A stretch of DNA of 64,000 nucleotides from Actinomycetes bacterium (GCA_021848885.1 JAJZTN010000001.1:148-64147), one strand, 5' to 3'. Numbered from the stretch's first letter, positions 6,218-17,824 are shown. Made by a program: numbers and translations. Notes: a model not told the origin generated them from the sequence alone.

Positions 6218-7987
6218 TCAGCCGATGCGGCGCACACCGGCCAGGTGCCGGGCGCAGAAGTCCAGCTCTGCGCGCATCTGGCGCACCTGCTCGTCCACCA
6301 CGAGTGAGCCGTGCCCCGCGTCGAAGCGGTACACCTCGTGCGCCTGGCCGCGCTGGGCCAACGCGGCAAGGTAGTTCTCGATCTGGCGGATCGGGCAGCG
6401 TGGGTCGTTCTCCCCGGCCAGCACCAGCACCGGCACCCGCACCGCATCGACGTAGCTGAGCGGTGAGGACTCCCGGTAGCGGTCGGGCACCTGCTCGGGC
6501 GAGCCACCGAAAAGGGCCCGGTCGAAGGCCTGCAGGCTCTCCATCTCGTCCTCGTAGGCCGCCACGTAGTCGGCGACCGGGACAGCCGCGACGCCCAGCG
6601 CCCACAGCTCGGGCTGGGTGCCCAGGCCGAGCAGGGTGAGGAAACCGCCCCAGGACCCGCCGGCCAGCACGCACCGGTCCGAGTCGGCCAGGCCGCACTC
6701 GACGGCCCAGGCCCGCACCGCGGCGAGGTCCTCCAGCTCGGTCAGCCCGACCCGTGCCTCGTTCGCGTCCCGCCAGGCCGAGCCGTAGCCGGTCGAGCCG
6801 CGGTAGTTGACCCGTACGACGGCCAGCCCCGCGTCCACCCAGGCCGCCACGGTGGGGGAGAACTCGTCGCAGTCGTGCCAGGTGGGCCCGCCGTGCACGA
6901 GGAAGAGCGTCGGGTGCGGGCCGGGGCCGGCCGGTGTCGCGACAAGAGCGTGGATGGTGCCGCCAGGCCCGGGCACCCAGGCATCGGTGACCGGCACCGA
7001 GGGGGGAGCCGGCTCGCCTCCGGGCTCCAGCAGCGTCTCACCCGAGGTGGCAAGCAGCACCGGGGGCCAGGCGGCCGATGACCAGCGGAACTCCACCGTG
7101 CCGTCCGGGCGGGCGGTGGCCTCGGACACGACCCCCGCTGGGGTGCCCAGCGGCTCGACCCGCCCGGTGGCCAGGTCCAGGCGGTGCAGCTCGGCGCGCC
7201 CCTGGTGCTCGTGGGTGACCAGCAGGCCGGCGGCGTCGGGGTAGAACTCGGCGACCACCTCGCCGGGCAGGTCGATGACCAGCTCGGTCTGCTCACCGGT
7301 CGCCACGTCGAGCATGAGCAGCTCGGGTCGGCCGCGCCGCTCGTGCCGGACGAGCAACCGGGGGTCACCGGGCACCGGCGCGAACTCCACTGGCTCCACC
7401 CCGCGGCCCGGCCCGTCCCACAGCTCGGCCACCGCCGCGCCGTCGGCGACCCGCAGCACCCGAAGCGCCGGGTGGCGGGAGTCGCCGTGCTCGCTGTGAG
7501 TGATGGCGACAAGCTCCCCGTCCCGGGACAGCGCGGCCACCCCAGCGTCCTCGGCGTGCCGGTAGAGCGTCACCGCGGGGTGGCCGGGGCCCACCCGGTG
7601 GATGCTCGTGCCGGCCTCGTCGGAGCGGCCGATGACCGCCAGGCCAGCTGGGCCGAGAGCCAGCCCGGCCGGATAGCCGGCGGCGACGTCGGGGGCGGCC
7701 GGCTCGGCCACCCCAGCGTCGAAGGGCTGGCGCATCCAGACCCCGAGCTCGTCACCGTCGGTGTCGTCGAACCACCAGACGCTTGCCCCGTCCGGGCTTA
7801 TTGCCGCCTCGGACGTGCCGGCTGGCCGGTCGGTCAGCCGGCGCCGTGCCCCGGTGCTCCGGTCCCACGAGTAGACCTCAGTGCGCCCAGAGGCGTTGGA
7901 CAGGTAGATGCAGCGCCCGGGGGCCTCGGTGGCCCACTCCGGCAGGCTCATGCGTACGGCGCGGAAGCGTCGCTCCCATTCCGGCAT
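6218..7987 (-). CDS. S9 family peptidase (prolyl oligopeptidase / acylaminoacyl-peptidase-like)
   Basis: An N-terminal beta-propeller is followed by a C-terminal alpha/beta hydrolase domain with the GGSWGG nucleophile elbow. The start is placed at the internal ATG (MPEWERRF); the ORF runs to 8095. Confidence 0.75.
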   Translation of the reverse strand: MPEWERRFRAVRMSLPEWATEAPGRCIYLSNASGRTEVYSWDRSTGARRRLTDRPAGTSEAAISPDGASVWWFDDTDGDELGVWMRQPFDAGVAEPAAPDVAAGYPAGLALGPAGLAVIGRSDEAGTSIHRVGPGHPAVTLYRHAEDAGVAALSRDGELVAITHSEHGDSRHPALRVLRVADGAAVAELWDGPGRGVEPVEFAPVPGDPRLLVRHERRGRPELLMLDVATGEQTELVIDLPGEVVAEFYPDAAGLLVTHEHQGRAELHRLDLATGRVEPLGTPAGVVSEATARPDGTVEFRWSSAAWPPVLLATSGETLLEPGGEPAPPSVPVTDAWVPGPGGTIHALVATPAGPGPHPTLFLVHGGPTWHDCDEFSPTVAAWVDAGLAVVRVNYRGSTGYGSAWRDANEARVGLTELEDLAAVRAWAVECGLADSDRCVLAGGSWGGFLTLLGLGTQPELWALGVAAVPVADYVAAYEDEMESLQAFDRALFGGSPEQVPDRYRESSPLSYVDAVRVPVLVLAGENDPRCPIRQIENYLAALAQRGQAHEVYRFDAGHGSLVVDEQVRQMRAELDFCARHLAGVRRIG

Positions 7988-8091
7988 CGCCGAGGCCTGG
8001 GTCAGCGACGGGTGCGGGCCTGCCGGCCCCGCGGTGGTGGGCACGGCGCCATCCAAGCAGCCGGACGGGTTCGCCCGCGCAGACCCCTCCG

Positions 8092-9876
8092 TCATCCCAG
8101 GGTGGTGGGGTGGATGCCGTAGCGGCGCATCTTGCGGTAGATGGTGGCGCGGGAGATGCCGAGGTTCTTGGCGGCCTGGAAGACGTTGCCGTCATGCTCG
8201 AGCAGGCCGCGCAGGATGGTGTCACGTTCGGCGGACTCGATCGGGGTCAGGGGGGCGCGTGAGGTGACCCGGCACTCGGGGGGCAGGTCGTCGGGCTCGA
8301 CGACGCGCAGGGACTGCCGGCGGGCCAGGGCGCGCACGACGGTCTCGACCTGGCGGATGTTCTCCGGCCAGGGGCAGCGGTGCAGCAGGTGCATGGCGGC
8401 GGGGGAGCAGCTGAGGTCCCCCGCGGGACGGTATCGGCGCAGGAAGTGGCGCACCAGGGCGGTGATGTCCTCAGCCCGGTGGCGCACCGGGGGTAGCTGA
8501 ACGACGGCACCGCACAGGGCTTGCAGGGTGTCTGGGCCGAGTGTGGGCTGCTGGATCGTGACGAAGAGCCGGGCCGCCCGGTCCCGGTCGATCCGGGCGA
8601 GGGCCTCGGTGAGCAGCAGGGCCAGGCGGGGGCTGAGCAGGTGCGTGCCGCGCAGGACCAGCACCGTGTGCGGGTCGCGCATCGCCTCGGCCACGGCGGC
8701 CAGCCAGGTGTCCTCGGCCTGGACGGTCTCGGAGACCGGCGGGTCGACCAGGATCGGTGCGCGCCCGGTGGCCGCCCGGTGCACGGCGGTGACCAGGTGC
8801 GCCTTGCCGGTGCCGGCTTCCCCCAGGACGGCGGTCCAGACCCGGGCGGCGTAGGCAGCCTGCACCTCGGCGACGGCCTTGACCCAGGACGGTGCGCCCC
8901 CGACCACCCCGGGGGGGATCGGGGTGGTCCGCACCGAGTGGGTCATCTTGTCGCGCTGGGGCCCGACCAGGCGCACCTGGAAGACGACCCCGGTGTCGTT
9001 GTCCGGCTCGCTCGTGGTGGCTCGAAGCTCGACGACCCGCCCGGAGGGCAGGGTGACGCTGAGCGTCCCCGCGAAGCCGGGGTCCTCGGCGAACTCGCGG
9101 GCGTGCGCGAGCAGGGCCTCCTGGTCGGGGCCGGCGATCGTCGAGCGCAGCTTGTCGTTCATCATCACGACGTCGTCGTTGAGGGCCAGCACCGGCACCT
9201 GGCGCACCGAGCGGCAGGCCTGCATGTACCTCTCGAAAAGGTTGTACTCGCGCTGGGAGCTGATCCGGGCCAGCTCGCGCTCGATCTGCTGCGCGGTGGA
9301 CTGGGTCAGGGCCAGCGCAATACCACCCGAGCTGTGGCTGACCGGCGTGGTCAGGTTGAACGCCCCGAGCACGACCCGCCGGGTCGGGTGCAGGATCGGC
9401 ACCGCCGCGCAGTGCAGCGGGCGCAGATCCTCGACGTAGTGCTCGGTGCCGCTTATGACGGTGGCCTGACCGCTGGCTAGCGAGGTGCCGATGCCGTTCG
9501 TGCCGGCGTAGCGCTCGGAGAACACGTGGCCGGGGGCCAGCTGCACGCGGTTCAGCCGTGAGGTCAGCCCGGCGTGGGAGACCTTGCGGACCAGGACCAG
9601 GCCCTCCCTGTCGGTGAGCATGAGCGACACAGGCTCGTTGGCGAGCGCCCCGTGCAGGGTTTCCATGATCGGCGTCGCCGCGCGCACCAGCGCGGCGTCC
9701 GGGTCGGGGACCTGCTTGAAGGGGACGTTGAGCTGGCGCATGTCGACGGCGTGCTCGATCGAGCGCTGCCAGGACGCGACGACCATCTCCCGCACGACGG
9801 CGGGCTTCTTCCCGTCGACCCGCTTCTGCTCGGACAGGTAGCACTCGCGGGCAAGCTCGAGAGCACGCGTGGGCAC
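8092..9876 (-). CDS. GAF-domain / AAA+ / Fis-type HTH transcriptional activator (AcoR/PrpR-like, sigma-54-activator architecture)
   Basis: The central AAA+ module has a degenerate Walker A (GEAGTGKAH). The C-terminal Fis-type HTH reads GNVFQAAKNLGISRATIYRKMRRYGI. The gene is divergent from the Zn-ADH gene. The GTG start near 9876 is inferred; the ORF extends to 10083. Confidence 0.7.
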   Translation of the reverse strand: MPTRALELARECYLSEQKRVDGKKPAVVREMVVASWQRSIEHAVDMRQLNVPFKQVPDPDAALVRAATPIMETLHGALANEPVSLMLTDREGLVLVRKVSHAGLTSRLNRVQLAPGHVFSERYAGTNGIGTSLASGQATVISGTEHYVEDLRPLHCAAVPILHPTRRVVLGAFNLTTPVSHSSGGIALALTQSTAQQIERELARISSQREYNLFERYMQACRSVRQVPVLALNDDVVMMNDKLRSTIAGPDQEALLAHAREFAEDPGFAGTLSVTLPSGRVVELRATTSEPDNDTGVVFQVRLVGPQRDKMTHSVRTTPIPPGVVGGAPSWVKAVAEVQAAYAARVWTAVLGEAGTGKAHLVTAVHRAATGRAPILVDPPVSETVQAEDTWLAAVAEAMRDPHTVLVLRGTHLLSPRLALLLTEALARIDRDRAARLFVTIQQPTLGPDTLQALCGAVVQLPPVRHRAEDITALVRHFLRRYRPAGDLSCSPAAMHLLHRCPWPENIRQVETVVRALARRQSLRVVEPDDLPPECRVTSRAPLTPIESAERDTILRGLLEHDGNVFQAAKNLGISRATIYRKMRRYGIHPTTLG

Positions 9877-10098
9877 GCCGACTCCCTTCCGAGGGCACCA
9901 ACGGCCCTCACCGGGCCCCCGCGCCCACCAAGTGCACCGCAGGTTACACGGCGGTTTCGCGGGTGTCTCAGATTGAAACAGCAATCGACTCACAGTGAGA
10001 CAGTTCGCCAACTTCTCCATGCGCTGTGCTCTGCCCGAGGCAGCCGCAAGGCCGGCGCGCGCCTCGTCGAGCGCCGCCGGCACCGAGAGGAGTTCGCA

Positions 10099-11124
10099 AT
10101 GAAGGCCGTTCAGCTAGGCGCCTACGAGACGCCCCCGACCCTGGTCGACGTGCCCGACCCGAGCATCCAGGGCCCGCTCGACGTGATCGTGCGGATCGGC
10201 GGGGCCGGGGTCTGCCGCACCGACCTGCACATCATCGAGGGCCAGTGGCAGGAGAAGACCGGTGTCAGGCTGCCCTACACGCTCGGGCACGAGAACGCCG
10301 GCTGGATCGAGGCGGTCGGCGAGGCGGTCACCCACGTCGGTGTCGGCGACCCGGTGATCCTGCACCCCCTGGCCACCTGCGGCCTGTGCCGGGCATGCCG
10401 GGCCGGGGACGACGTCCACTGCGTCAACAGCGCGTTCCCCGGCATCGACAGCGATGGAGGGTACGCCGAGTACCTGCGCACCAGCGCCCGCTCGGTGGTC
10501 AAGCTGGACCCCTCGCTGGCTCCCGCGGGCGTCGCCGCGCTGGCCGACGCGGGGCTGACGGCGTACCACGCGGTCGCCAAGGCGGCGCGCAAGCTGCGGC
10601 CGGGGGACAAGGCCGTGGTCATCGGAGCCGGGGGTCTCGGCCACATCGGCGTGCAGGTGCTGCGGGCACTGTCGCCGGCGCAGATGATCGTCATCGACCG
10701 CTCGGCCGAGGCGCTGGCCCTGGCGGCCGAGCTGGGCGCCGAGCAGACCGTGCTCGCCGACGGCAACCAGGTCCAGGCCGTCATGGAGCTCACCGGCGGG
10801 ACCGGCGCCGAGGCCGTCATCGACTTCGTCGGCGAGGGCGGGGCCGTCGAGGACGGCGTCGCCATGCTGCGCCGGGCCGGGGACTACTACGTCATCGGAT
10901 ACGGCGGGCGGATCAACGTGCCCACCATCGACATCATCTCCACCGAGATCAACTTCGTCGGAAACCTCGTGGGGTCCTACAACGACCTCGTCGAACTCAT
11001 GGTGCTTGCCGCGCAGGACAAGGTGACGCTGCACACCAAGACTTACGCCCTGTCCGACTTCGCGTCGGCACTGGACGACCTCGACCACGGCAGGGTTCGC
11101 GGCCGGGCCATCTTGGTCCCCTGA
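10099..11124 (+). CDS. Zinc-dependent alcohol dehydrogenase (MDR superfamily)
   Basis: The start MKAVQLGAYETPP is followed by catalytic Zn ligands (C..H..E), the structural Zn cluster CGLCRACRAG...C, and the GxGxxG motif VIGAGGLGH. Confidence 0.85.
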   Translation: MKAVQLGAYETPPTLVDVPDPSIQGPLDVIVRIGGAGVCRTDLHIIEGQWQEKTGVRLPYTLGHENAGWIEAVGEAVTHVGVGDPVILHPLATCGLCRACRAGDDVHCVNSAFPGIDSDGGYAEYLRTSARSVVKLDPSLAPAGVAALADAGLTAYHAVAKAARKLRPGDKAVVIGAGGLGHIGVQVLRALSPAQMIVIDRSAEALALAAELGAEQTVLADGNQVQAVMELTGGTGAEAVIDFVGEGGAVEDGVAMLRRAGDYYVIGYGGRINVPTIDIISTEINFVGNLVGSYNDLVELMVLAAQDKVTLHTKTYALSDFASALDDLDHGRVRGRAILVP

Positions 11125-11165
11125 CAGGCCGCCCCAACAGCTCACAACCCGAAGAGAGGCTCGAC

Positions 11166-12773
11166 ATGACCAAGCACAGGAGAGCCAAGCTGGCAGCGGC
11201 GCTGGCGGTCAGCGCGCTCGCCGTCACCGCCTGCAGCGCCGGCGGCGGTGGTTCTGGCGCCAGCAAGCCCGACAAGCCCGCGAAGTTCGCCCCGGGCTCG
11301 GACATCAGCTACACCAAGTACGGGTCGAACTACCCCTCGACCACCGTCAAGGACGTGCCCGGCCCGTGCAGCTACGAGTCCATCAGCAAGAAGGACTACT
11401 CGGGGCGGACCCTGAGGGTCATCTCGCACGCCGTCCCGGTGATGGGCGAGCCCACACAGCTGCACGCCAAGCAGTTCGCCGAGCTCACCGGCGCCAAGGT
11501 GGACGTCGTCAACGTGCCCTTCGGCGAGCTGTACCAGAAGATCCTCACCCCCTTGCAGGCCGGCCAGCCGGCGTACGACGTGATGTTCTACCCGTCCCTG
11601 TGGATCGGAGACATGGCGCCCTACCTTGCGCCGGTGCCGCAGAAGTACCTCGACACCGCGCAGATGAAGGACGTCACCAAGGCCTACATGCAGGTCGCGA
11701 CCTGGAACGGCAAGGTCGTGCAGTACCCCGTGGACGGTGACCGGCACTACCTGAAGGTGCGCTCGGACATCATCGACAGCCCCAAGTGGCAGGCGGCGTA
11801 CAAGGCGGCCACCGGCAAGACGCTGGAGGTGCCCAAGACCTGGGAGGAGTACCAGCAGATCGCCCAGTTCTTCAGCGGCAAGGACTGGTCGGGCAGCGGC
11901 AAGCTGAACTACGGCAGCGCCGAGGTGACCAAGCGCGACGACCTGATGTTCTCCGCCTTCATCAGCCGGGCCGCGGCGTACGCCAAGAACCCCAACGTCA
12001 AGACCGGGTTCTTCTTCGACGTCGACACGATGAAGCCCGAGATCAACAACCCCGGTTTCGTCCGTGCGCTCACCGACTTCGTCAAGGCCAAGTCGACCTG
12101 GCCGCCCGGTGGCGCCAACTTCGGACTCGGTGACGAGATCTTCTCCTTCGGCGGCGGCCAGACCCTGATGTCCTACAGCTGGGACGACGCGTTCATCCAG
12201 GCGCAGCAACCGGACAGCAAGATCCGCAACGAGGTCGAGGCGGCCCAGCTTCCCGGCGCCACCCAGGTGTGGAACCGCGACACCAACCAGTGGGACACCC
12301 CGGCCAGCATCAACCAGGTGCCGTACTTCACCTGGGGCTGGACCTCGGCAGTCGCCAAGGACAGCAAGCAGCAGACGATGGCGTTCGACTTCCTGTGCTT
12401 CTTCAGCAACGACGCCAACACCGCCCTCGACCTGACGATCGGCCGGTTCGGGATCAACCCCTACCGCAACGCGCACTTCGACGCCGCGTTCTGGGAGAAG
12501 CAGGGCTGGAGCAAGCAGACCGCCGAGACCTACGTCAAGACGCTGTCCGACATGGAGAAGAGCCCCAACCGGGTGTTCGACCTGCGAGTGCCTGGCGTCA
12601 ACCAGTACATGTCGTCGCTGGCCAACGGGGTCGCCGACGCCATCTCCGGCCAGAAGCAGCCGCAGCAGGCCCTGGACGACGTCGCCAAGGAGTGGAACGA
12701 CATCACCACCCAGGTGGGCAAGGACAAGGTGCAGGCGGCCTACCGCAACGTGGTCGCGCTGGAGAACGGCTGA
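11166..12773 (+). CDS. ABC transporter extracellular solute-binding lipoprotein (family 1 / CUT1-like, unusually large at ~535 aa)
   Basis: The start MTKHRRAKLAAALAVSALAVTAC gives a signal peptide plus lipobox. The protein is Trp/Tyr-rich, typical of sugar-binding SBPs. It lies upstream of two MalF/MalG-type permease genes. Confidence 0.8.
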   Translation: MTKHRRAKLAAALAVSALAVTACSAGGGGSGASKPDKPAKFAPGSDISYTKYGSNYPSTTVKDVPGPCSYESISKKDYSGRTLRVISHAVPVMGEPTQLHAKQFAELTGAKVDVVNVPFGELYQKILTPLQAGQPAYDVMFYPSLWIGDMAPYLAPVPQKYLDTAQMKDVTKAYMQVATWNGKVVQYPVDGDRHYLKVRSDIIDSPKWQAAYKAATGKTLEVPKTWEEYQQIAQFFSGKDWSGSGKLNYGSAEVTKRDDLMFSAFISRAAAYAKNPNVKTGFFFDVDTMKPEINNPGFVRALTDFVKAKSTWPPGGANFGLGDEIFSFGGGQTLMSYSWDDAFIQAQQPDSKIRNEVEAAQLPGATQVWNRDTNQWDTPASINQVPYFTWGWTSAVAKDSKQQTMAFDFLCFFSNDANTALDLTIGRFGINPYRNAHFDAAFWEKQGWSKQTAETYVKTLSDMEKSPNRVFDLRVPGVNQYMSSLANGVADAISGQKQPQQALDDVAKEWNDITTQVGKDKVQAAYRNVVALENG

Positions 12774-12877
12774 CGGAGGTGACCTGAGCCCGGGGGCGGA
12801 CACCGACCTCGTCCGCCCCCGGGCCCAGGGCCGTCCGAGCGCCCCATCACGTCCAACCGCAAGGAGAGGAGGGAGTC

Positions 12878-13753
12878 GTGGACGGCATGCGCAGGTACAA
12901 GAGCATGTTCCTGCTCCCGGGCCTGCTCACCCTGTTCATCATCATCATCTTCCCGTTGCTGTTCACGATCCGGGTGAGCTTCTCCGGCTGGAACGTGAGC
13001 AACCCGCACATGGACTTCATCGGCGGGGCCAACTTCGTCCGGATGCTCGCCGACCACCGGTTCTGGGCCTCGATCCTCCGGCTGATCCTGCTGGCTGGCG
13101 GGACGGTGCTCATCGAGTACGTCCTCGGGTTCGCCCTTGCCCTCATGGTGTGGAGGAACGTGCGCGGTCAGCGGGTGTGGCGGGTGCTGTTCCTCGTCCC
13201 CATGATGACCACGCCGGTCGTCATGGCGGCCATCTGGCAGACGATCTTCAACGAGTCGCTGGGCCCGGTCAACGACCTGCTCGGGCGTGTGGGGCTGCCC
13301 ACGGTGCAGTGGCTCACCAGCACCGGACCCGCCACGGTCGCGCTGATGACCGTCGAGATCTGGCAGTGGACGCCCTTCATGTTCCTGCTGCTGCTGGCCG
13401 GGCTGCTCAGCCTGTCCAAGGAGCCGTTCATGGCTGCCGCCATCGACGGCGCCGGTCCGGTGCGGACCTTCTTCAAGGTGACCTTCCCGCTGATGGCGCC
13501 GGTCTCGGTCACCGCCCTGATCATCCGGCTGATCGAGGCCTCGAAGATGTCCGACTCGGTGTACGTCCTGACCTCCGGCGGCCCCGGCTCGTCCACCGAG
13601 ACACCTGGGTACTACCTCTACATCCGGGGCCTGAAGGAGCAGCAGACCGGGTACGCCGGATCGCTCTCACTCACCTACCTGGTGCTGATGATCGTCACGC
13701 TGACAATCGTGTCCAGGCTGCTGGTGCGCACCCTGAAGACCAGGACGGGCTGA
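12878..13753 (+). CDS. ABC transporter permease (MalF/UgpA-type, 6 TM)
   Basis: A hydrophobic N-terminus and six predicted TM segments. The permease 'EAA' loop region reads IDGAGPVRTFFKVTFPLM. Confidence 0.85.
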   Translation: MDGMRRYKSMFLLPGLLTLFIIIIFPLLFTIRVSFSGWNVSNPHMDFIGGANFVRMLADHRFWASILRLILLAGGTVLIEYVLGFALALMVWRNVRGQRVWRVLFLVPMMTTPVVMAAIWQTIFNESLGPVNDLLGRVGLPTVQWLTSTGPATVALMTVEIWQWTPFMFLLLLAGLLSLSKEPFMAAAIDGAGPVRTFFKVTFPLMAPVSVTALIIRLIEASKMSDSVYVLTSGGPGSSTETPGYYLYIRGLKEQQTGYAGSLSLTYLVLMIVTLTIVSRLLVRTLKTRTG

Positions 13754-13754
13754 G

Positions 13755-14597
13755 ATGTCTCGCGCATACCTGACGTTCAAGTACGCGTTCATCGCGGTGT
13801 GGGCCAGCTTCGTGGCCGGCCCGTTCGTGTGGGCGCTGACCACGAGCTTCAAAGACGCCAACGGCGTGCAGGGCGGGGCGACGTACCTGCCGTGGGTGGA
13901 CTACAAGCCCACCACCAGGGGCTGGCAGGACATCTTCGGCGGGGAAGGCGGCGTGAACGTCATCCAGCCGTTTCTCAACAGCCTGCAGATCACGGTGCTC
14001 GCCTCGGCGATCTCGCTGGTGCTCGGCTCGCTGGCCGCGTACGGGCTGTCGCGGTACACCTACCGGATCGGGCGCATGAAGAACGCGGACATCGTGTTCT
14101 TCTTCGTCTCCCAGCGGATCATGCCTCCGATCGTGCTGGTCATCCCGTTCTTCTTCCTGCTGCAGTTCGCGGGGCTGCTCGACTCGATCCCGGGCCTGGT
14201 CATCGTCACCGTCGCGCTGCTGCTTCCGATCGCCGTCTGGGTGATGGTGGACTTCTTCAACAACATCCCGCGCGAGATCGACGAGATGGCCATGCTGGAC
14301 GGCTGCCACCCGTTCGCCGCGTTCGTCCGCACGATCCTGCCGAACTCGTTGCCAGGCATCACGGTGGCCGCGATGTTCTGCGCTGTCTTCGGCTGGAACG
14401 ACTTCTTCTTCGCGTTCCGCCTCACTTTCACCGAGGTGCAGACGCTGCCCCAGGCCGTGGTCGCGCTGAACTCCTCGATCCCGCCGTGGTGGACGCTGTC
14501 CGCCGCCTCGCTCTTCGGCATCTCGCCTCTTGTGCTGCTGGCCGTCTGGGTCGAGCGCTACCTTTCGCGGGGCAACCTGGCCGGGGCGGTCCGGTGA
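13755..14597 (+). CDS. ABC transporter permease (MalG/UgpE-type)
   Basis: Six TM segments. The EAA-like motif is LDGCHPFAAFVRTILPNSLPG. The gene is translationally coupled to the preceding permease gene. Confidence 0.85.
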   Translation: MSRAYLTFKYAFIAVWASFVAGPFVWALTTSFKDANGVQGGATYLPWVDYKPTTRGWQDIFGGEGGVNVIQPFLNSLQITVLASAISLVLGSLAAYGLSRYTYRIGRMKNADIVFFFVSQRIMPPIVLVIPFFFLLQFAGLLDSIPGLVIVTVALLLPIAVWVMVDFFNNIPREIDEMAMLDGCHPFAAFVRTILPNSLPGITVAAMFCAVFGWNDFFFAFRLTFTEVQTLPQAVVALNSSIPPWWTLSAASLFGISPLVLLAVWVERYLSRGNLAGAVR

Positions 14598-15673
14598 CCC
14601 TGACCGCGCGCGGCCTGACCCTGTCCGTCGAGGGCGTCGACCATCTCCGCGACATCACCCTGGACCTGCGGCCCGGACGCATCTACACGGTCATCGGGCG
14701 CACCCTGGCGGGCAAGTCCTCGCTGCTGCGGGTGCTGGCCGGTCTGCAGCGGGTGGACGCTGGGACGCTGACGCAGGACGGCACCGACCTGCTGCAGGTG
14801 CCCGTGTGGCGCCGCGACACGGCCATGGTCTACCAGCAGTTCATCAACTATCCGCACCTGAACGTGTTCGACAACGTCGCGTTCCCCTTGCGCAGAGCCA
14901 AGCTGAGCGGCGAGCAGGTGCGGCTGCGGGCCACCGAGAGCCTGGCCAAGGTGGGGCTTTCCGACTTCCACGCCCGCAAACCCTCCCAGCTCTCTGGCGG
15001 GCAGCAGCAGCGGGTGGCTCTCGCCCGTGCGCTGGCCCGGCGCTGCAAGACCCTGCTGCTGGACGAACCCCTGGTGAACCTGGACTACAAGCTTCGCGAG
15101 CAGCTGCGCGAGGAGTTCCGCGAGCTGTTCTCCGGGGTCGGGGACTCGGTCGTCGTCTACACCACCACCGAGACCACCGAGGCGATGATGCTAGGCGATG
15201 AGGTCATCGTCATGCACGAGGGCCGGATCGTGCAGACCGGGACCCCGGCCGAGGTTTTCGACGCCCCGGCGACCACCACGGTGGCCCAGATCATCAACGA
15301 GCCGCCCATGAACATCATCCCCGGCACGGTCACGGGCGGGCGGATGCGTCTGAACGACCTCGGGGCGGTTGACCTGCCCGCACACCTGGCGGGCTTGCCG
15401 GACGGGCCGTGTCAGTTCGGTCTGCGGGCCACGGACCTCTCCCTGTCCTCGTCGGAGGGACTGCGCGGTGACGTGACGTTCGTCGAGATCTCGGGCTCGG
15501 AGACGTTCGTGCATGTGGTCATCGCCGACATCCCGATGGTGGTGCAGCTGGAGGGGATCCACGACGTGTCACTGGGCGACGCGGTTCTCGTCACGATCCG
15601 CAGCGACCGGCTGTTCGCGTTCTCGGCGCAGGGCGACCTGCTGGTCGCCCCGTCGGAGCAGGGGGGACGCTGA
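14594..15673 (+). CDS. ABC transporter ATP-binding protein 1 (MalK-like, with C-terminal TOBE-like domain); H-loop degenerate
   Basis: Walker A GRTLAGKSS, Q-loop, canonical signature LSGGQQQRVALARAL and Walker B LLLDEPL are present. The H-loop His is replaced (VVVYTTTETTE). The GTG start overlaps the permease stop. Confidence 0.8.
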   Translation: MTLTARGLTLSVEGVDHLRDITLDLRPGRIYTVIGRTLAGKSSLLRVLAGLQRVDAGTLTQDGTDLLQVPVWRRDTAMVYQQFINYPHLNVFDNVAFPLRRAKLSGEQVRLRATESLAKVGLSDFHARKPSQLSGGQQQRVALARALARRCKTLLLDEPLVNLDYKLREQLREEFRELFSGVGDSVVVYTTTETTEAMMLGDEVIVMHEGRIVQTGTPAEVFDAPATTTVAQIINEPPMNIIPGTVTGGRMRLNDLGAVDLPAHLAGLPDGPCQFGLRATDLSLSSSEGLRGDVTFVEISGSETFVHVVIADIPMVVQLEGIHDVSLGDAVLVTIRSDRLFAFSAQGDLLVAPSEQGGR

Positions 15674-15674
15674 G

Positions 15675-16799
15675 ATGGCCCAGCTGGAGCTGCTCGACGT
15701 CGGGCACTGCTACGTCCCTGGCGAGGGCGAGGACCGCTGGGCGCTCAAGCCGCTCACCGTGACGTTCGAGGCCGGCAAGACCTACGCCCTGGTCGGGCCC
15801 TCGGGCTGCGGCAAGACCACCCTGCTGAACATCCTGTCCGGGCTCGTCTCGCCGACGCGCGGCCGGGTGCTCTTCGACGGCGCGGACATGACCCGCCGGT
15901 CCACGCGCGAGCGAAACATCGCTCAGGTGTTCCAGTTCCCGGTGATCTACACCTCGATGACCGTCTACCAGAACCTGGCCTTCCCGCTGGAGTGCCGCAA
16001 CTGGGACAGCCGGCGGATCGACGCCAAGGTGCGCACCGTGGCCGAGGCGCTCGGCCTGGGCGACCGGCTCAAGGAACCGGCGCGCAAGCTCAACGCCGAC
16101 GACAAGCAGCTGATCTCCCTGGGCCGCGGCCTGGTGCGGGACGACGTCGCCGCACTGCTCATGGACGAGCCGCTCACCGTCATCGACCCCCAGCTGAAGT
16201 TCTCGCTGCGTCGCAGGATCCGCGAGATCAGCGAGCAGTTCCGTCCGACGGTCATCTACGTGACCCACGACCAGTACGAGGCGATGAGCTTCGTCGAGGA
16301 GCTGCTCGTGATGAAGGACGGGCAGGTCATGCAGCAAGGCACCCCCGAGGAGCTTTTCGAGAGCCCGCGATCGGCCTATGTCGGCTACTTCATCGGCTCG
16401 CCCTCGATGAACTTCCTGGACGTCACCCAGGACGGTTCCGGTGTCTGGCTGGCGGGCCAGCGGCTGGCCATGTCCTGGCAGCCCCCGGCTGCTCGAGTGC
16501 CAGCCGAGGCTTCCGGAGCCGGTGCCGCGCAGGCGGGCGTCCTGCAGGCGGGCATCCGGCCCGAGTACGTGCGGCTGGCCTCGGCGCCTGGGCCGAACAC
16601 GTTCCCGGCGCGGCTACAGGCAGTGCGCGACCATGGGCCGCTACGGGTGCTGCACGTCGAGATCGGCGGGCAGCGGCTGGCTCTGAAGCTGGCGCGCGAG
16701 GCGGGAGTCCCCCATGGGGACACGCTGCTGGTCGAGCTGCCGCGCGCGAAGGTGCTGCCCTACGTCGGCGGCCAGCTCGCGACCGTCGTGGCGGGCTGA
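15675..16799 (+). CDS. ABC transporter ATP-binding protein 2 (MalK-like); signature motif degenerate
   Basis: Canonical Walker A GPSGCGKTT, Walker B LLMDEPL and H-loop VTHDQ are present. The LSGGQ signature is replaced by LISLGRG. A C-terminal TOBE-like domain is present. Confidence 0.8.
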   Translation: MAQLELLDVGHCYVPGEGEDRWALKPLTVTFEAGKTYALVGPSGCGKTTLLNILSGLVSPTRGRVLFDGADMTRRSTRERNIAQVFQFPVIYTSMTVYQNLAFPLECRNWDSRRIDAKVRTVAEALGLGDRLKEPARKLNADDKQLISLGRGLVRDDVAALLMDEPLTVIDPQLKFSLRRRIREISEQFRPTVIYVTHDQYEAMSFVEELLVMKDGQVMQQGTPEELFESPRSAYVGYFIGSPSMNFLDVTQDGSGVWLAGQRLAMSWQPPAARVPAEASGAGAAQAGVLQAGIRPEYVRLASAPGPNTFPARLQAVRDHGPLRVLHVEIGGQRLALKLAREAGVPHGDTLLVELPRAKVLPYVGGQLATVVAG

Positions 16800-16861
16800 G
16801 CGCGCCCTGTGTCGTGCCATCCGCCCTGCCCAGGCCCGACCGTCAGCGACCGGCAGCGGCG

Positions 16862-17233
16862 CGGTCGGTCGTCCCCGGGGCGACCCCGGCCCACACGGCT
16901 GAACTGGTCCTGCGGCTACGCAAGCAGCTGTCCGAGGCCGGGCTGGACGCCGGCGCCGACACCATCGGCTGGCACCTGACCCACCACCACGGCACGACGC
17001 TGTCCCGAGCGACGATCAACCGGATCCTGGTCCGGGCCGGCGCAGTCACCCCGGAACCCGCGAAGCGCCCGAAGAGCAGCTACCTGCGGTTCGAGGCCGA
17101 GCTACCGAACGAGACCTGGCAGGCCGACTTCACCCACTACCGCCTCTCCGACGGCGCCCGCCGCATCAGCCACCGCGGCGGTACCCGACGCATCGAGGAA
17201 GGCACCGACGTCGAGATCCTCACCTGGCTCGAC
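16862..17233 (+). pseudogene. IS481-family transposase, internal 5' fragment (truncated at both ends)
   Basis: The translation AELVLRLRKQLSEAGLDAGADTIGWHLTHHH...KRPKSSYLRFEAELPNETWQADFTHYRLSDG...TDVEILTWLD matches the conserved N-terminal/early DDE region of IS481-family transposases. Homology stops abruptly at about 17233. Confidence 0.6.
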
Positions 17234-17824
17234 GGTGGCGATCAGGAACTTGCGCAGCGTCTTGGCCTCGGCGTTGGGGATGACGCTCATCCTGGCCCGC
17301 CCGTAGCCCCGCGGTTCGCGCAGCTCCACCGCGATCACCACCAACGTCTTGCCGAGCGCGCCGCATCCTCGCGGGCCCGGTTCCTCGCCGCTGATGCAGG
17401 TCTCGTCGACCTCGACCCGGCCGGTCAGGACCTCTCGGCCGGGCCGCACCGTCGCGGTCCGGTAGCGGTGCAGCATCGCCCACGCCGTCTGGTAGGAGCC
17501 CAGCCCGAGCAACTTCTGCATCGTCAACGCCGACGCCCCGCCCGGATCGGCGGTCATGTACCAAGCCGCGGCGAACCACACCGTCAACCCCGTACGCGTA
17601 TCCTGGAAGATCCTCCCCGAGGTGCGCGAGACCCGCTTACAGCACCCGCCGCAACGCCACACCCGGCCCGCACCCACCGTCGTGGCCACCCGTCCGCACT
17701 TCGGGCACATCGGCCCGGACGGCCAGCGCAGCCAGTCCAGGTAGTCCATGCACGCCTCGTCGTCGGGGAGCCACGCCCTCAACTCCGCGTACGAACCCGG
17801 ATAGTGCACACCGCGTGACGGCAC
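17233..17824 (-). pseudogene. IS1595-family (ISXO2-like) transposase, N-terminal fragment truncated at 3' end
   Basis: The zinc-ribbon CPKCG...CGGCC plus ...ARMSVIPNAEAKTLRKFLIATVEPG is typical of IS1595-family transposases. Homology ends where the IS481 fragment abuts. The low-GC patch 17825-17900 just upstream may be the element terminus. Confidence 0.6.

Follow-up and report, generated by a model that had tools for sequence, protein, structure and literature searches.

Adenosine triphosphate (ATP)-binding cassette (ABC) importers of the MalFGK2 or CUT1 type (MalK, UgpC, SugC, MsmX, AlgS) combine a MalE-like substrate-binding protein (SBP) with MalF/MalG permeases and with ATPases that carry C-terminal OB/TOBE regulatory domains. 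Their motor is a homodimer of one ATPase with two consensus ATP sites. Models of the Type I importer rest on such homodimers, namely MalK2, HisP2 and MetN2, and the number of ATP molecules used per cycle is debated. In a stretch of 64,000 nucleotides from an Actinomycetes bacterium (GCA_021848885.1, JAJZTN010000001.1:148-64147; hereafter the window, meaning the whole stretch that was analysed, in whose coordinates all positions are given), genes for an SBP, two permeases and two ATPases at 11166-16799 probably encode an importer of this type. Unlike in MalFGK2, the usual state of a single ATPase forming a homodimer was not found here; the two adjacent ATPase genes are paralogous, and their products are predicted to form one consensus and one degenerate ATP site.

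The closest characterised relative of this transporter is the glycerol importer GlpSTPQUV; its description comes from Rhizobium leguminosarum VF39, and it has been recognised in Cupriavidus and Ralstonia as well (PMC7912956, PMC11223650). Like the window system, GlpSTPQUV (Rmet_2229-2234 in Cupriavidus; "glycerol transport system" in KEGG) pairs two distinct MalK-like ATPases with two permeases and a large SBP, and with it the two-ATPase architecture is already known for CUT1-type importers (PMC7912956). Pairs of a consensus and a degenerate site are presented in reviews as a feature of exporters (PMC3971661, PMC7756269). TM287/288, BmrCD, TAP1/2 and CFTR resemble the window system in their non-identical nucleotide-binding domains (NBDs) and in deviations, including those of the H-loop and signature, that lie in one composite site (PMC3971661, PMC7756269), but they have the exporter fold, transport in the opposite direction, and in most of them the catalytic Glu of Walker B is replaced, whereas in the window system this Glu is kept and the A-loop aromatic residue is lost. 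Among SBP-dependent importers, RbsA and NupO (CUT2-type, fused NBDs) have one site that is degenerate by sequence (PMC11466899), and in the literature searched they were the sole importers for which this was noted. In these two proteins both NBDs lie in one polypeptide, the second Walker A is without Lys and the permeases are of the RbsC type, whereas the window system has separate subunits of the MalK type with regulatory domains, and the Walker A Lys is intact in both. The histidine importer HisP can work with a single intact site, although this is not universal (PMC3971661). The initial annotation of the window had regarded the asymmetry as known from exporters and unusual for an SBP-dependent importer; the likeness to exporters holds, and the unusualness is tempered by the precedents of RbsA, NupO and GlpSTPQUV. 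In the literature, no statement was found on motif asymmetry in GlpS/GlpT, on DUF2160 or on a module joining an AcoR-like regulator, an alcohol dehydrogenase (ADH) and an ABC transporter, and the original GlpSTPQUV paper of 2012 may comment on the motifs. It appears that no MalK-type importer with a conserved degenerate site had been described before.

The two ATPases of the window, ATPase 1 (GlpS-like, 359 amino acids, 14594..15673) and ATPase 2 (GlpT-like, 374 amino acids, 15675..16799), are encoded on the + strand and share 32% identity. The ABC_tran, OB_MalK and TOBE_2 matches of ATPase 2 all exceed the Pfam cut-offs, as do ABC_tran and TOBE_2 in ATPase 1, whose OB_MalK match falls below. 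Pfam and NCBIfam place both proteins in the MalK/UgpC group, and their best solved relatives by HMMER are AlgS, MalK, SugC and MsmX. Motifs were called from HMMER alignments to solved MalK-type ATPases and from a MAFFT alignment that included E. coli MalK. In ATPase 1, the signature (LSGGQQQ, 14990-15010), Walker B (LLLDEP, 15053-15070) and the Q-loop are intact and the D-loop reads LVNLD (15071-15085); Walker A is atypical (GRTLAGKS, 14696-14719, aligned to MalK), the A-loop aromatic residue at the position of MalK W13 is missing, and the H-loop reads YTTTET (15158-15175) against YVTHDQ, with Thr for His. ATPase 2 has an A-loop Tyr (GHCY, 15702-15713), a canonical Walker A (GPSGCGKT, 15795-15818) and intact Q-loop (QVFQFP, 15924-15941), Walker B (LLMDEP, 16155-16172) and H-loop (YVTHDQ, 16257-16274); its signature is degenerate (LNADDKQ, 16089-16109, with LNADD at residues 139-143), and its D-loop is LTVID (16173-16187) where the usual form is SNLD. 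All these motifs are given on the + strand.

In a head-to-tail NBD dimer, each ATP site is made of the A-loop, Walker A/B, Q-loop and H-loop of one subunit and the signature and D-loop of its partner. When this geometry is assumed from established ABC structures, the motif calls support an arrangement in which every deviation would fall in the site built from the P-loop of ATPase 1 and the signature of ATPase 2, and the reciprocal site would be canonical. The initial annotation had already recognised two distinct MalK-like ATPases, the adjacent genes and 32% identity of which agree with it, and had seen that ATPase 1 keeps LSGGQ and has its H-loop His replaced, which is now specified as His to Thr. 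Its description of ATPase 2 was right for the intact Walker A/B and H-loop and for the degeneracy of the signature; the residues it named, LISLGRG (146-152), are mis-assigned, as they lie 7 residues past the signature and align to the following helix (RVAIGRT in MalK). The proposal that the defects merge into one crippled site and leave the other consensus agrees with the motif mapping in 81 of 81 pairs (see below). Its list of degenerate elements was correct for the H-loop and signature and incomplete otherwise, since the A-loop and Walker A of ATPase 1 and the D-loop of ATPase 2 deviate as well. The alignments to solved MalK-type ATPases and to MalK also showed that the substitutions are not artefacts of misalignment.

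The regulator-ADH-SBP-permease-permease-ATPase-ATPase series is a conserved seven-gene module. When one genome of each GTDB species was scanned with the SBP, at least 489 relatives were confirmed, and 80 loci were fetched from Streptomyces, Micromonospora, Planotetraspora, Janibacter, Alpha-, Beta- and Gammaproteobacteria and Chloroflexota, to which three plasmid loci were added. The 81 ATPase pairs that were counted comprise the window, 79 related loci and one glp operon, and all 81 are asymmetric, across Actinomycetota, Pseudomonadota and Chloroflexota. The H-loop His is present in none of the ATPase 1-type sequences (Thr in 79, Ala in 2) and in all of the ATPase 2 type; the A-loop aromatic residue is likewise absent from the former (0/81) and is Tyr throughout the latter (81/81). 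Conversely, the SGGQ signature was found in 81/81 sequences of the ATPase 1 type and in 0/81 of the ATPase 2 type, in which it is mostly L-T/S-A-D-x-K-Q, with Asp at the second signature Gly position (Gly137) in 78. The D-loop is [A/V/G]NLD in the ATPase 1 type and LTVID in every ATPase 2 sequence. The Walker A Lys and the Walker B Asp and Glu are complete in each type (81/81), so that the replacement of the catalytic Glu typical of exporters was not found in ATPase 1, and the Q-loop Gln is kept in 78 sequences of the ATPase 1 type and in all of the ATPase 2 type. The commonest Walker A of the ATPase 1 type is GRT[ML]AGKT, where the window has GRTLAGKS. The replacement motifs (TTEP; L-T/S-A-D-x-K-Q; TVID) are themselves conserved although the NBDs average only 68-75% pairwise identity, which indicates that the altered site is probably under selection and not eroding.

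The same asymmetry was found in glycerol importers. A tblastn search of plasmids with ATPase 2 led to canonical glp operons, with 46-50% identity, in Azospirillum, Comamonas, Thalassospira, Paracoccus and Tistrella; their order is glpD-glpS-glpT-glpP-glpQ-DUF2160-glpV, usually followed by glpK, and the Comamonas operon has a DeoR/GlpR regulator. All five GlpS/GlpT pairs carry the motif asymmetry of the window pair. ATPase 1 is 39% identical to Azospirillum GlpS and ATPase 2 is 47% identical to Azospirillum GlpT. In a neighbour-joining tree of both ATPase types and GlpS/GlpT, with MalK and two UgpC-type ATPases as outgroups, ATPase 1 grouped with GlpS and ATPase 2 with GlpT in 100/100 bootstraps each; within each clade the ADH-linked and Glp ATPases were reciprocally monophyletic (96-100/100), and the two subtrees mirror each other. 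From this topology and the shared asymmetry it follows that duplication and degeneration predate the split of the ADH-linked and Glp lineages and that the partners have co-diverged. The pair is therefore old, as its 32% identity, the asymmetry in 81 pairs and its origin before the GlpS/GlpT split show, and these values, the tree and the motif conservation rule out recent duplicates or pseudogenes, a possibility that had been raised for these genes.

Several indirect but consistent lines of evidence bear on whether the two ATPases act in one transporter. Their genes are adjacent (1 nucleotide apart or overlapping) in all 80 ADH-linked loci that extend to them, and they are adjacent in all glp operons examined. 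In one protein of 588 amino acids (P0122), a GlpS-type N-terminal half (LSGGQ, YATTDP) without the C-terminal regulatory domain is fused to a GlpT-type C-terminal half (LATDVRQ, YVTHDQ). Three independent metagenome assemblies (L093:5520-11496, L094, L095) encode exactly this protein, and its gene is the sole ATPase gene of a glp-type operon, followed by two permease genes, DUF2160 and a 573-residue SBP. Other long matches to P0122 (530-884 amino acids, all singletons, some with broken motifs) are probably read-through or frameshift artefacts of GlpS-GlpT, and the alignment of fusions was set aside because MAFFT had put ATPase 1 of the window on the wrong half and several fusions are damaged by frameshifts. 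A homodimer of ATPase 2 would have no signature at either site and a homodimer of ATPase 1 no His at either site; because each homodimer is thus incomplete at both sites, only the heterodimer yields a canonical site. We infer that the two NBDs form one heterodimer, and these pairs should be annotated accordingly.

The explanation that we consider probable, taken as a whole, is an uptake-and-oxidation module driven by an asymmetric ATPase heterodimer, in which the transporter is a Type I (MalFGK-like, CUT1) importer of a clade that includes GlpSTPQUV. The motor would be an obligate ATPase 1/ATPase 2 heterodimer and not a homodimer. Its consensus site, made of the A-loop Tyr, Walker A/B, Q-loop and H-loop His of ATPase 2 and the LSGGQ and D-loop of ATPase 1, would power transport by ATP hydrolysis. 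The second site, in which Walker A/B of ATPase 1, with no A-loop aromatic residue and with Thr for His, would face the LNADD and TVID of ATPase 2, is predicted to be non-catalytic. Because Lys and Thr of Walker A, Asp-Glu of Walker B and Gln of the Q-loop all persist in ATPase 1, the likeliest role of this site is to bind Mg-ATP without turning it over, or else to hold the two subunits in register; the absence of turnover would imply about one ATP per cycle. The cargo may be a polyol or diol that is small and neutral and bears a secondary hydroxyl group; after uptake, the co-transcribed ADH would oxidise it in the cytoplasm, and a divergent GAF and helix-turn-helix (HTH) regulator would control the system. 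The nature of the cargo is a guess by analogy, made because the nearest characterised transporter imports glycerol, the ADH is of the secondary-alcohol type and the regulator is AcoR/DhaR-like.

Several observations weigh against this explanation. A search of solved structures in the PDB found no family member, and the closest ATPases there are of the homodimeric AlgS, MalK and SugC types. The catalytic Glu and Walker A Lys of ATPase 1 would allow slow hydrolysis at the second site, and, in the opposite direction, the loss of its A-loop aromatic residue together with the Asp in 78/81 ATPase 2 signatures may mean that the site binds no nucleotide. As to the substrate, no specific NCBIfam model matched the ADH above its cut-off; clustering of flanking open reading frames, which was noisy from antisense frames at high G+C, gave no conserved catabolic gene beyond the ADH and regulator; the SBP is only 28% identical to GlpV over 190 residues; and its fold matches di- and oligosaccharide binders too. 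It could be asked whether the two ATPases belong to one transporter at all, or form separate homodimers, serve another permease pair or have a regulatory role. The actinomycete ATPase MsiK can serve several CUT1 permease pairs, which would be a parallel, but the invariant adjacency of the genes, the mirrored trees, the natural single-gene fusion and the lack of a complete site in either homodimer make such a separation highly improbable. Hardly better placed is a pair that has diverged with its substitutions tolerated and has stayed functionally symmetric, both ATP sites being competent. Some ABC proteins tolerate H-loop changes, and both subunits keep the catalytic Glu and Walker A Lys; yet the A-loop, Walker A, H-loop, signature and D-loop all deviate within one composite site and the other site is invariant and canonical, and mutation of the H-loop His or of the signature Ser/Gly severely impairs MalK, HisP and HlyB. 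A stronger competitor, although we hold it to be unlikely, accepts the heterodimer and makes the degenerate site a nucleotide-free, permanently engaged protein-protein contact, for example one in which the signature Asp pairs with Lys or Arg in Walker A of ATPase 1. The A-loop loss in all 81 ATPase 1 sequences, the Asp at the Gly137 position and the non-standard Walker A of ATPase 1 would fit such a contact, whereas the retention of its Walker A Lys/Thr, Walker B Asp/Glu and Q-loop Gln in 78-81 of the 81 sequences is hard to explain without binding of Mg-nucleotide.

The remaining question is whether the locus is simply a GlpSTPQUV orthologue, with glycerol as substrate and the ADH acting as glycerol dehydrogenase. 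The ATPases cluster with GlpS and GlpT at the identities given above, many relatives carry the JGI label "glycerol transport system ATP-binding protein", and the best NCBIfam match of the regulator is DhaR, the regulator of the dihydroxyacetone-kinase operon. On the other hand, the ADH-linked and Glp ATPases are reciprocally monophyletic, the permeases are only about 30% identical to their Glp counterparts (permease 1, 29% to Azospirillum GlpP; permease 2, 30% to GlpQ), and the SBP aligns to GlpV, a protein of about 575-585 amino acids, over its 190 N-terminal residues and not beyond. DUF2160/GlpU was not found with five GlpU sequences in tblastn (no match of E<0.2 in the window, none of E<=1e-3 in 83 related loci), and the intergenic gaps of the window leave no room for GlpU, which glp operons encode after the permeases and ahead of the SBP. 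Neither glpK, glpD nor a DeoR-type GlpR is linked to the window locus or its relatives, and the gene order differs, being SBP-first in the window and ATPases-first in GlpSTPQUV operons. The window subfamily is accompanied by a Zn-dependent ADH and an AcoR/DhaR-like regulator, in contrast to the glpD, DUF2160 and usually glpK of GlpSTPQUV operons. Simple orthology is accordingly rather improbable, if less so than symmetric sites, and the locus is, by its sequence relationships, an uncharacterised sister subfamily of GlpSTPQUV and not a Glp orthologue. This ADH-linked subfamily should not default to annotation as a "glycerol" or "multiple sugar" transporter.

The asymmetric design appears to mark a large clade that extends beyond the Glp and ADH-linked subfamilies. 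When ATPase 2 was searched against 1.84 billion cluster representatives, an intact Walker A and a degenerate signature were found in every one of the 46 best representatives that could be aligned, out of the 47 ranked highest, and all but one kept the H-loop His; among the best 150 representatives, roughly 85 had a degenerate signature. Other degenerate types (P0154-P0187 and others) were LSLFEKQ with the D-loop LTAVE and Walker A GASGAGKT, LGPGERQ, and LDxxxRQ. One ATPase of the LSLFEKQ type (L091:2-1956) directly follows a partner with LSGGQQQ and an H-loop without His (YNTSDP). It is possible, at somewhat less than even chances, that a broad clade of MalK-type importers, comprising GlpSTPQUV, the ADH-linked subfamily and others, runs on an obligate asymmetric heterodimer whose non-catalytic second site is selected. 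If so, the clade would be an importer counterpart of TM287/288 or CFTR that has apparently gone unremarked, would extend the consensus/degenerate design to classical binding-protein-dependent importers, and would offer a natural experiment on one versus two ATP per cycle of a Type I importer. The window locus would then define a horizontally spread uptake-plus-oxidation module for a small alcohol or polyol; with the module in at least 489 species genomes of several phyla, knowing what it imports would give a role to a widespread, mobile catabolic island.

The genes of the module lie in a region of high G+C content (0.65-0.76). ADH, SBP, permease 1, permease 2, ATPase 1 and ATPase 2 form a tight series on the + strand with gaps of 41, 104, 1, -4 and 1 nucleotides, and the GTG start of ATPase 1 overlaps the stop of permease 2 by 4 nucleotides. 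The coordinates 11166-16799 and the gene calls given earlier for the transporter were correct on re-examination. Permease 1 (12878..13753, +) is MalF/UgpA/GlpP-like, with a BPD_transp_1 match of 4.6e-18 and weak NCBIfam matches to UgpA, GlcT and MalF; permease 2 (13755..14597, +) is MalG/UgpE/GlpQ-like, with a BPD_transp_1 match of 5.6e-11 and NCBIfam similarity to MalG/UgpE. Scans for promoters, terminators and repeats over 9700-17300 and in the divergent intergenic region gave nothing informative.

The SBP gene (11166..12773, +) encodes a lipoprotein of 535 amino acids with a lipobox (LAVTAC, residues 18-23), and the large size noted in the initial annotation was confirmed. Its SBP_bac_1 match is weak (E 8.6e-4, below gathering), its homologues carry PF01547/PF13416, and by sequence only weak MalE matches were found in the PDB. 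The AlphaFold2 model has a predicted local distance difference test (pLDDT) score of 88.9, and Foldseek matched it to MalE-type sugar SBPs with a probability of 1.0 and a template modelling score of 0.8 on targets of about 400 residues. The protein thus shows a MalE-like fold with extra segments, about 100 residues in sum. One Gly-rich segment, GGANFGLGDEIFSFGGGQ (residues 315-332, window 12108-12161), is near-invariant in 62 homologues from several phyla and is the sole internal region of the SBP with pLDDT <50; this segment may be a mobile loop that gates the ligand or acts as a hinge. The SBP is 62-81% identical to its homologues in three phyla. The nearest SBP relatives beyond the family, on rhizobial plasmids (L002, L003; 28-35% identity, 484-546 amino acids), were rejected as members, being a different family with a single UgpC-type ATPase in operons that also carry RbsD/FucU or ribokinase genes. 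Since such large SBPs occur with a single ATPase, SBP size alone does not predict the two-ATPase design.

The ADH gene (10099..11124, +), 41 nucleotides 5' of the SBP gene, encodes a Zn-dependent medium-chain alcohol dehydrogenase of 341 amino acids (ADH_N and ADH_zinc_N), whose best solved relatives are the Aeropyrum pernix ADH 1H2B (3e-103) and the secondary-alcohol ADH-A of Rhodococcus ruber. An ADH gene lies directly 5' of the SBP gene in all loci with sufficient contig except one (L053), and the synteny from ADH to ATPase 2 is kept in about 80 loci of Actinomycetota, Alpha-, Beta- and Gammaproteobacteria and Chloroflexota. The divergent regulator gene (8092..10083, -) encodes an AcoR/DhaR-like protein with a GAF domain, an AAA+ lid and a Fis-type HTH; Pfam matched GAF, AAA_lid_14 and HTH_8 and gave no Sigma54_activat match, and the best NCBIfam match, DhaR (1.5e-39), falls below its cut-off. 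Its true start is probably downstream of the start of the longest open reading frame. In 45 actinobacterial loci a homologue was detected in the corresponding place and with the same orientation, and a family of 664-residue regulators takes this position in 24 other loci, of which the Ponticoccus member is 23% identical over 617 residues. This Ponticoccus orthologue (L006:534-2483, -) is annotated as sigma-54-dependent and likewise has no Sigma54_activat match in Pfam; the AAA+ core of this family may be degenerate, and its regulators may act independently of sigma-54. Alcohol and ketol catabolic operons under AcoR/DhaR control similarly place a divergent GAF, AAA+ and Fis-HTH regulator beside an alcohol dehydrogenase; the window regulator differs by having no detectable Sigma54_activat domain, and no acoABC or dhaKLM is linked to it. 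The AcoR-like regulator was noted from the beginning, but neither it nor the ADH is a mere neighbour of the transporter, as had been thought, and both belong to the conserved module. An S9 (prolyl-oligopeptidase family) serine peptidase gene with an N-terminal beta-propeller-like region (6218-8095, -) adjoins the regulator gene and is not kept with the module in other loci.

Directly downstream of the ATPase 2 stop lies a truncated IS1595-family transposase gene (17102-17824, -), with Zn_ribbon_IS1595 and a partial DDE_Tnp_IS1595. An IS481-like remnant that had been suspected by eye at about 16.9-17.1 kb (+) had no Pfam support and was dropped. G+C content is 0.654-0.678 over the transporter genes (12001-16000), whereas most of the flanking DNA has 0.72-0.75. 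Linear plasmids of Streptomyces carry orthologous clusters beside an IS4 transposase (L004), and the SBP is 62-69% identical between phyla. Taken together, the IS1595 remnant, the drop in G+C, the plasmid and IS4 context and the SBP identity between phyla suggest that the module is horizontally mobile.

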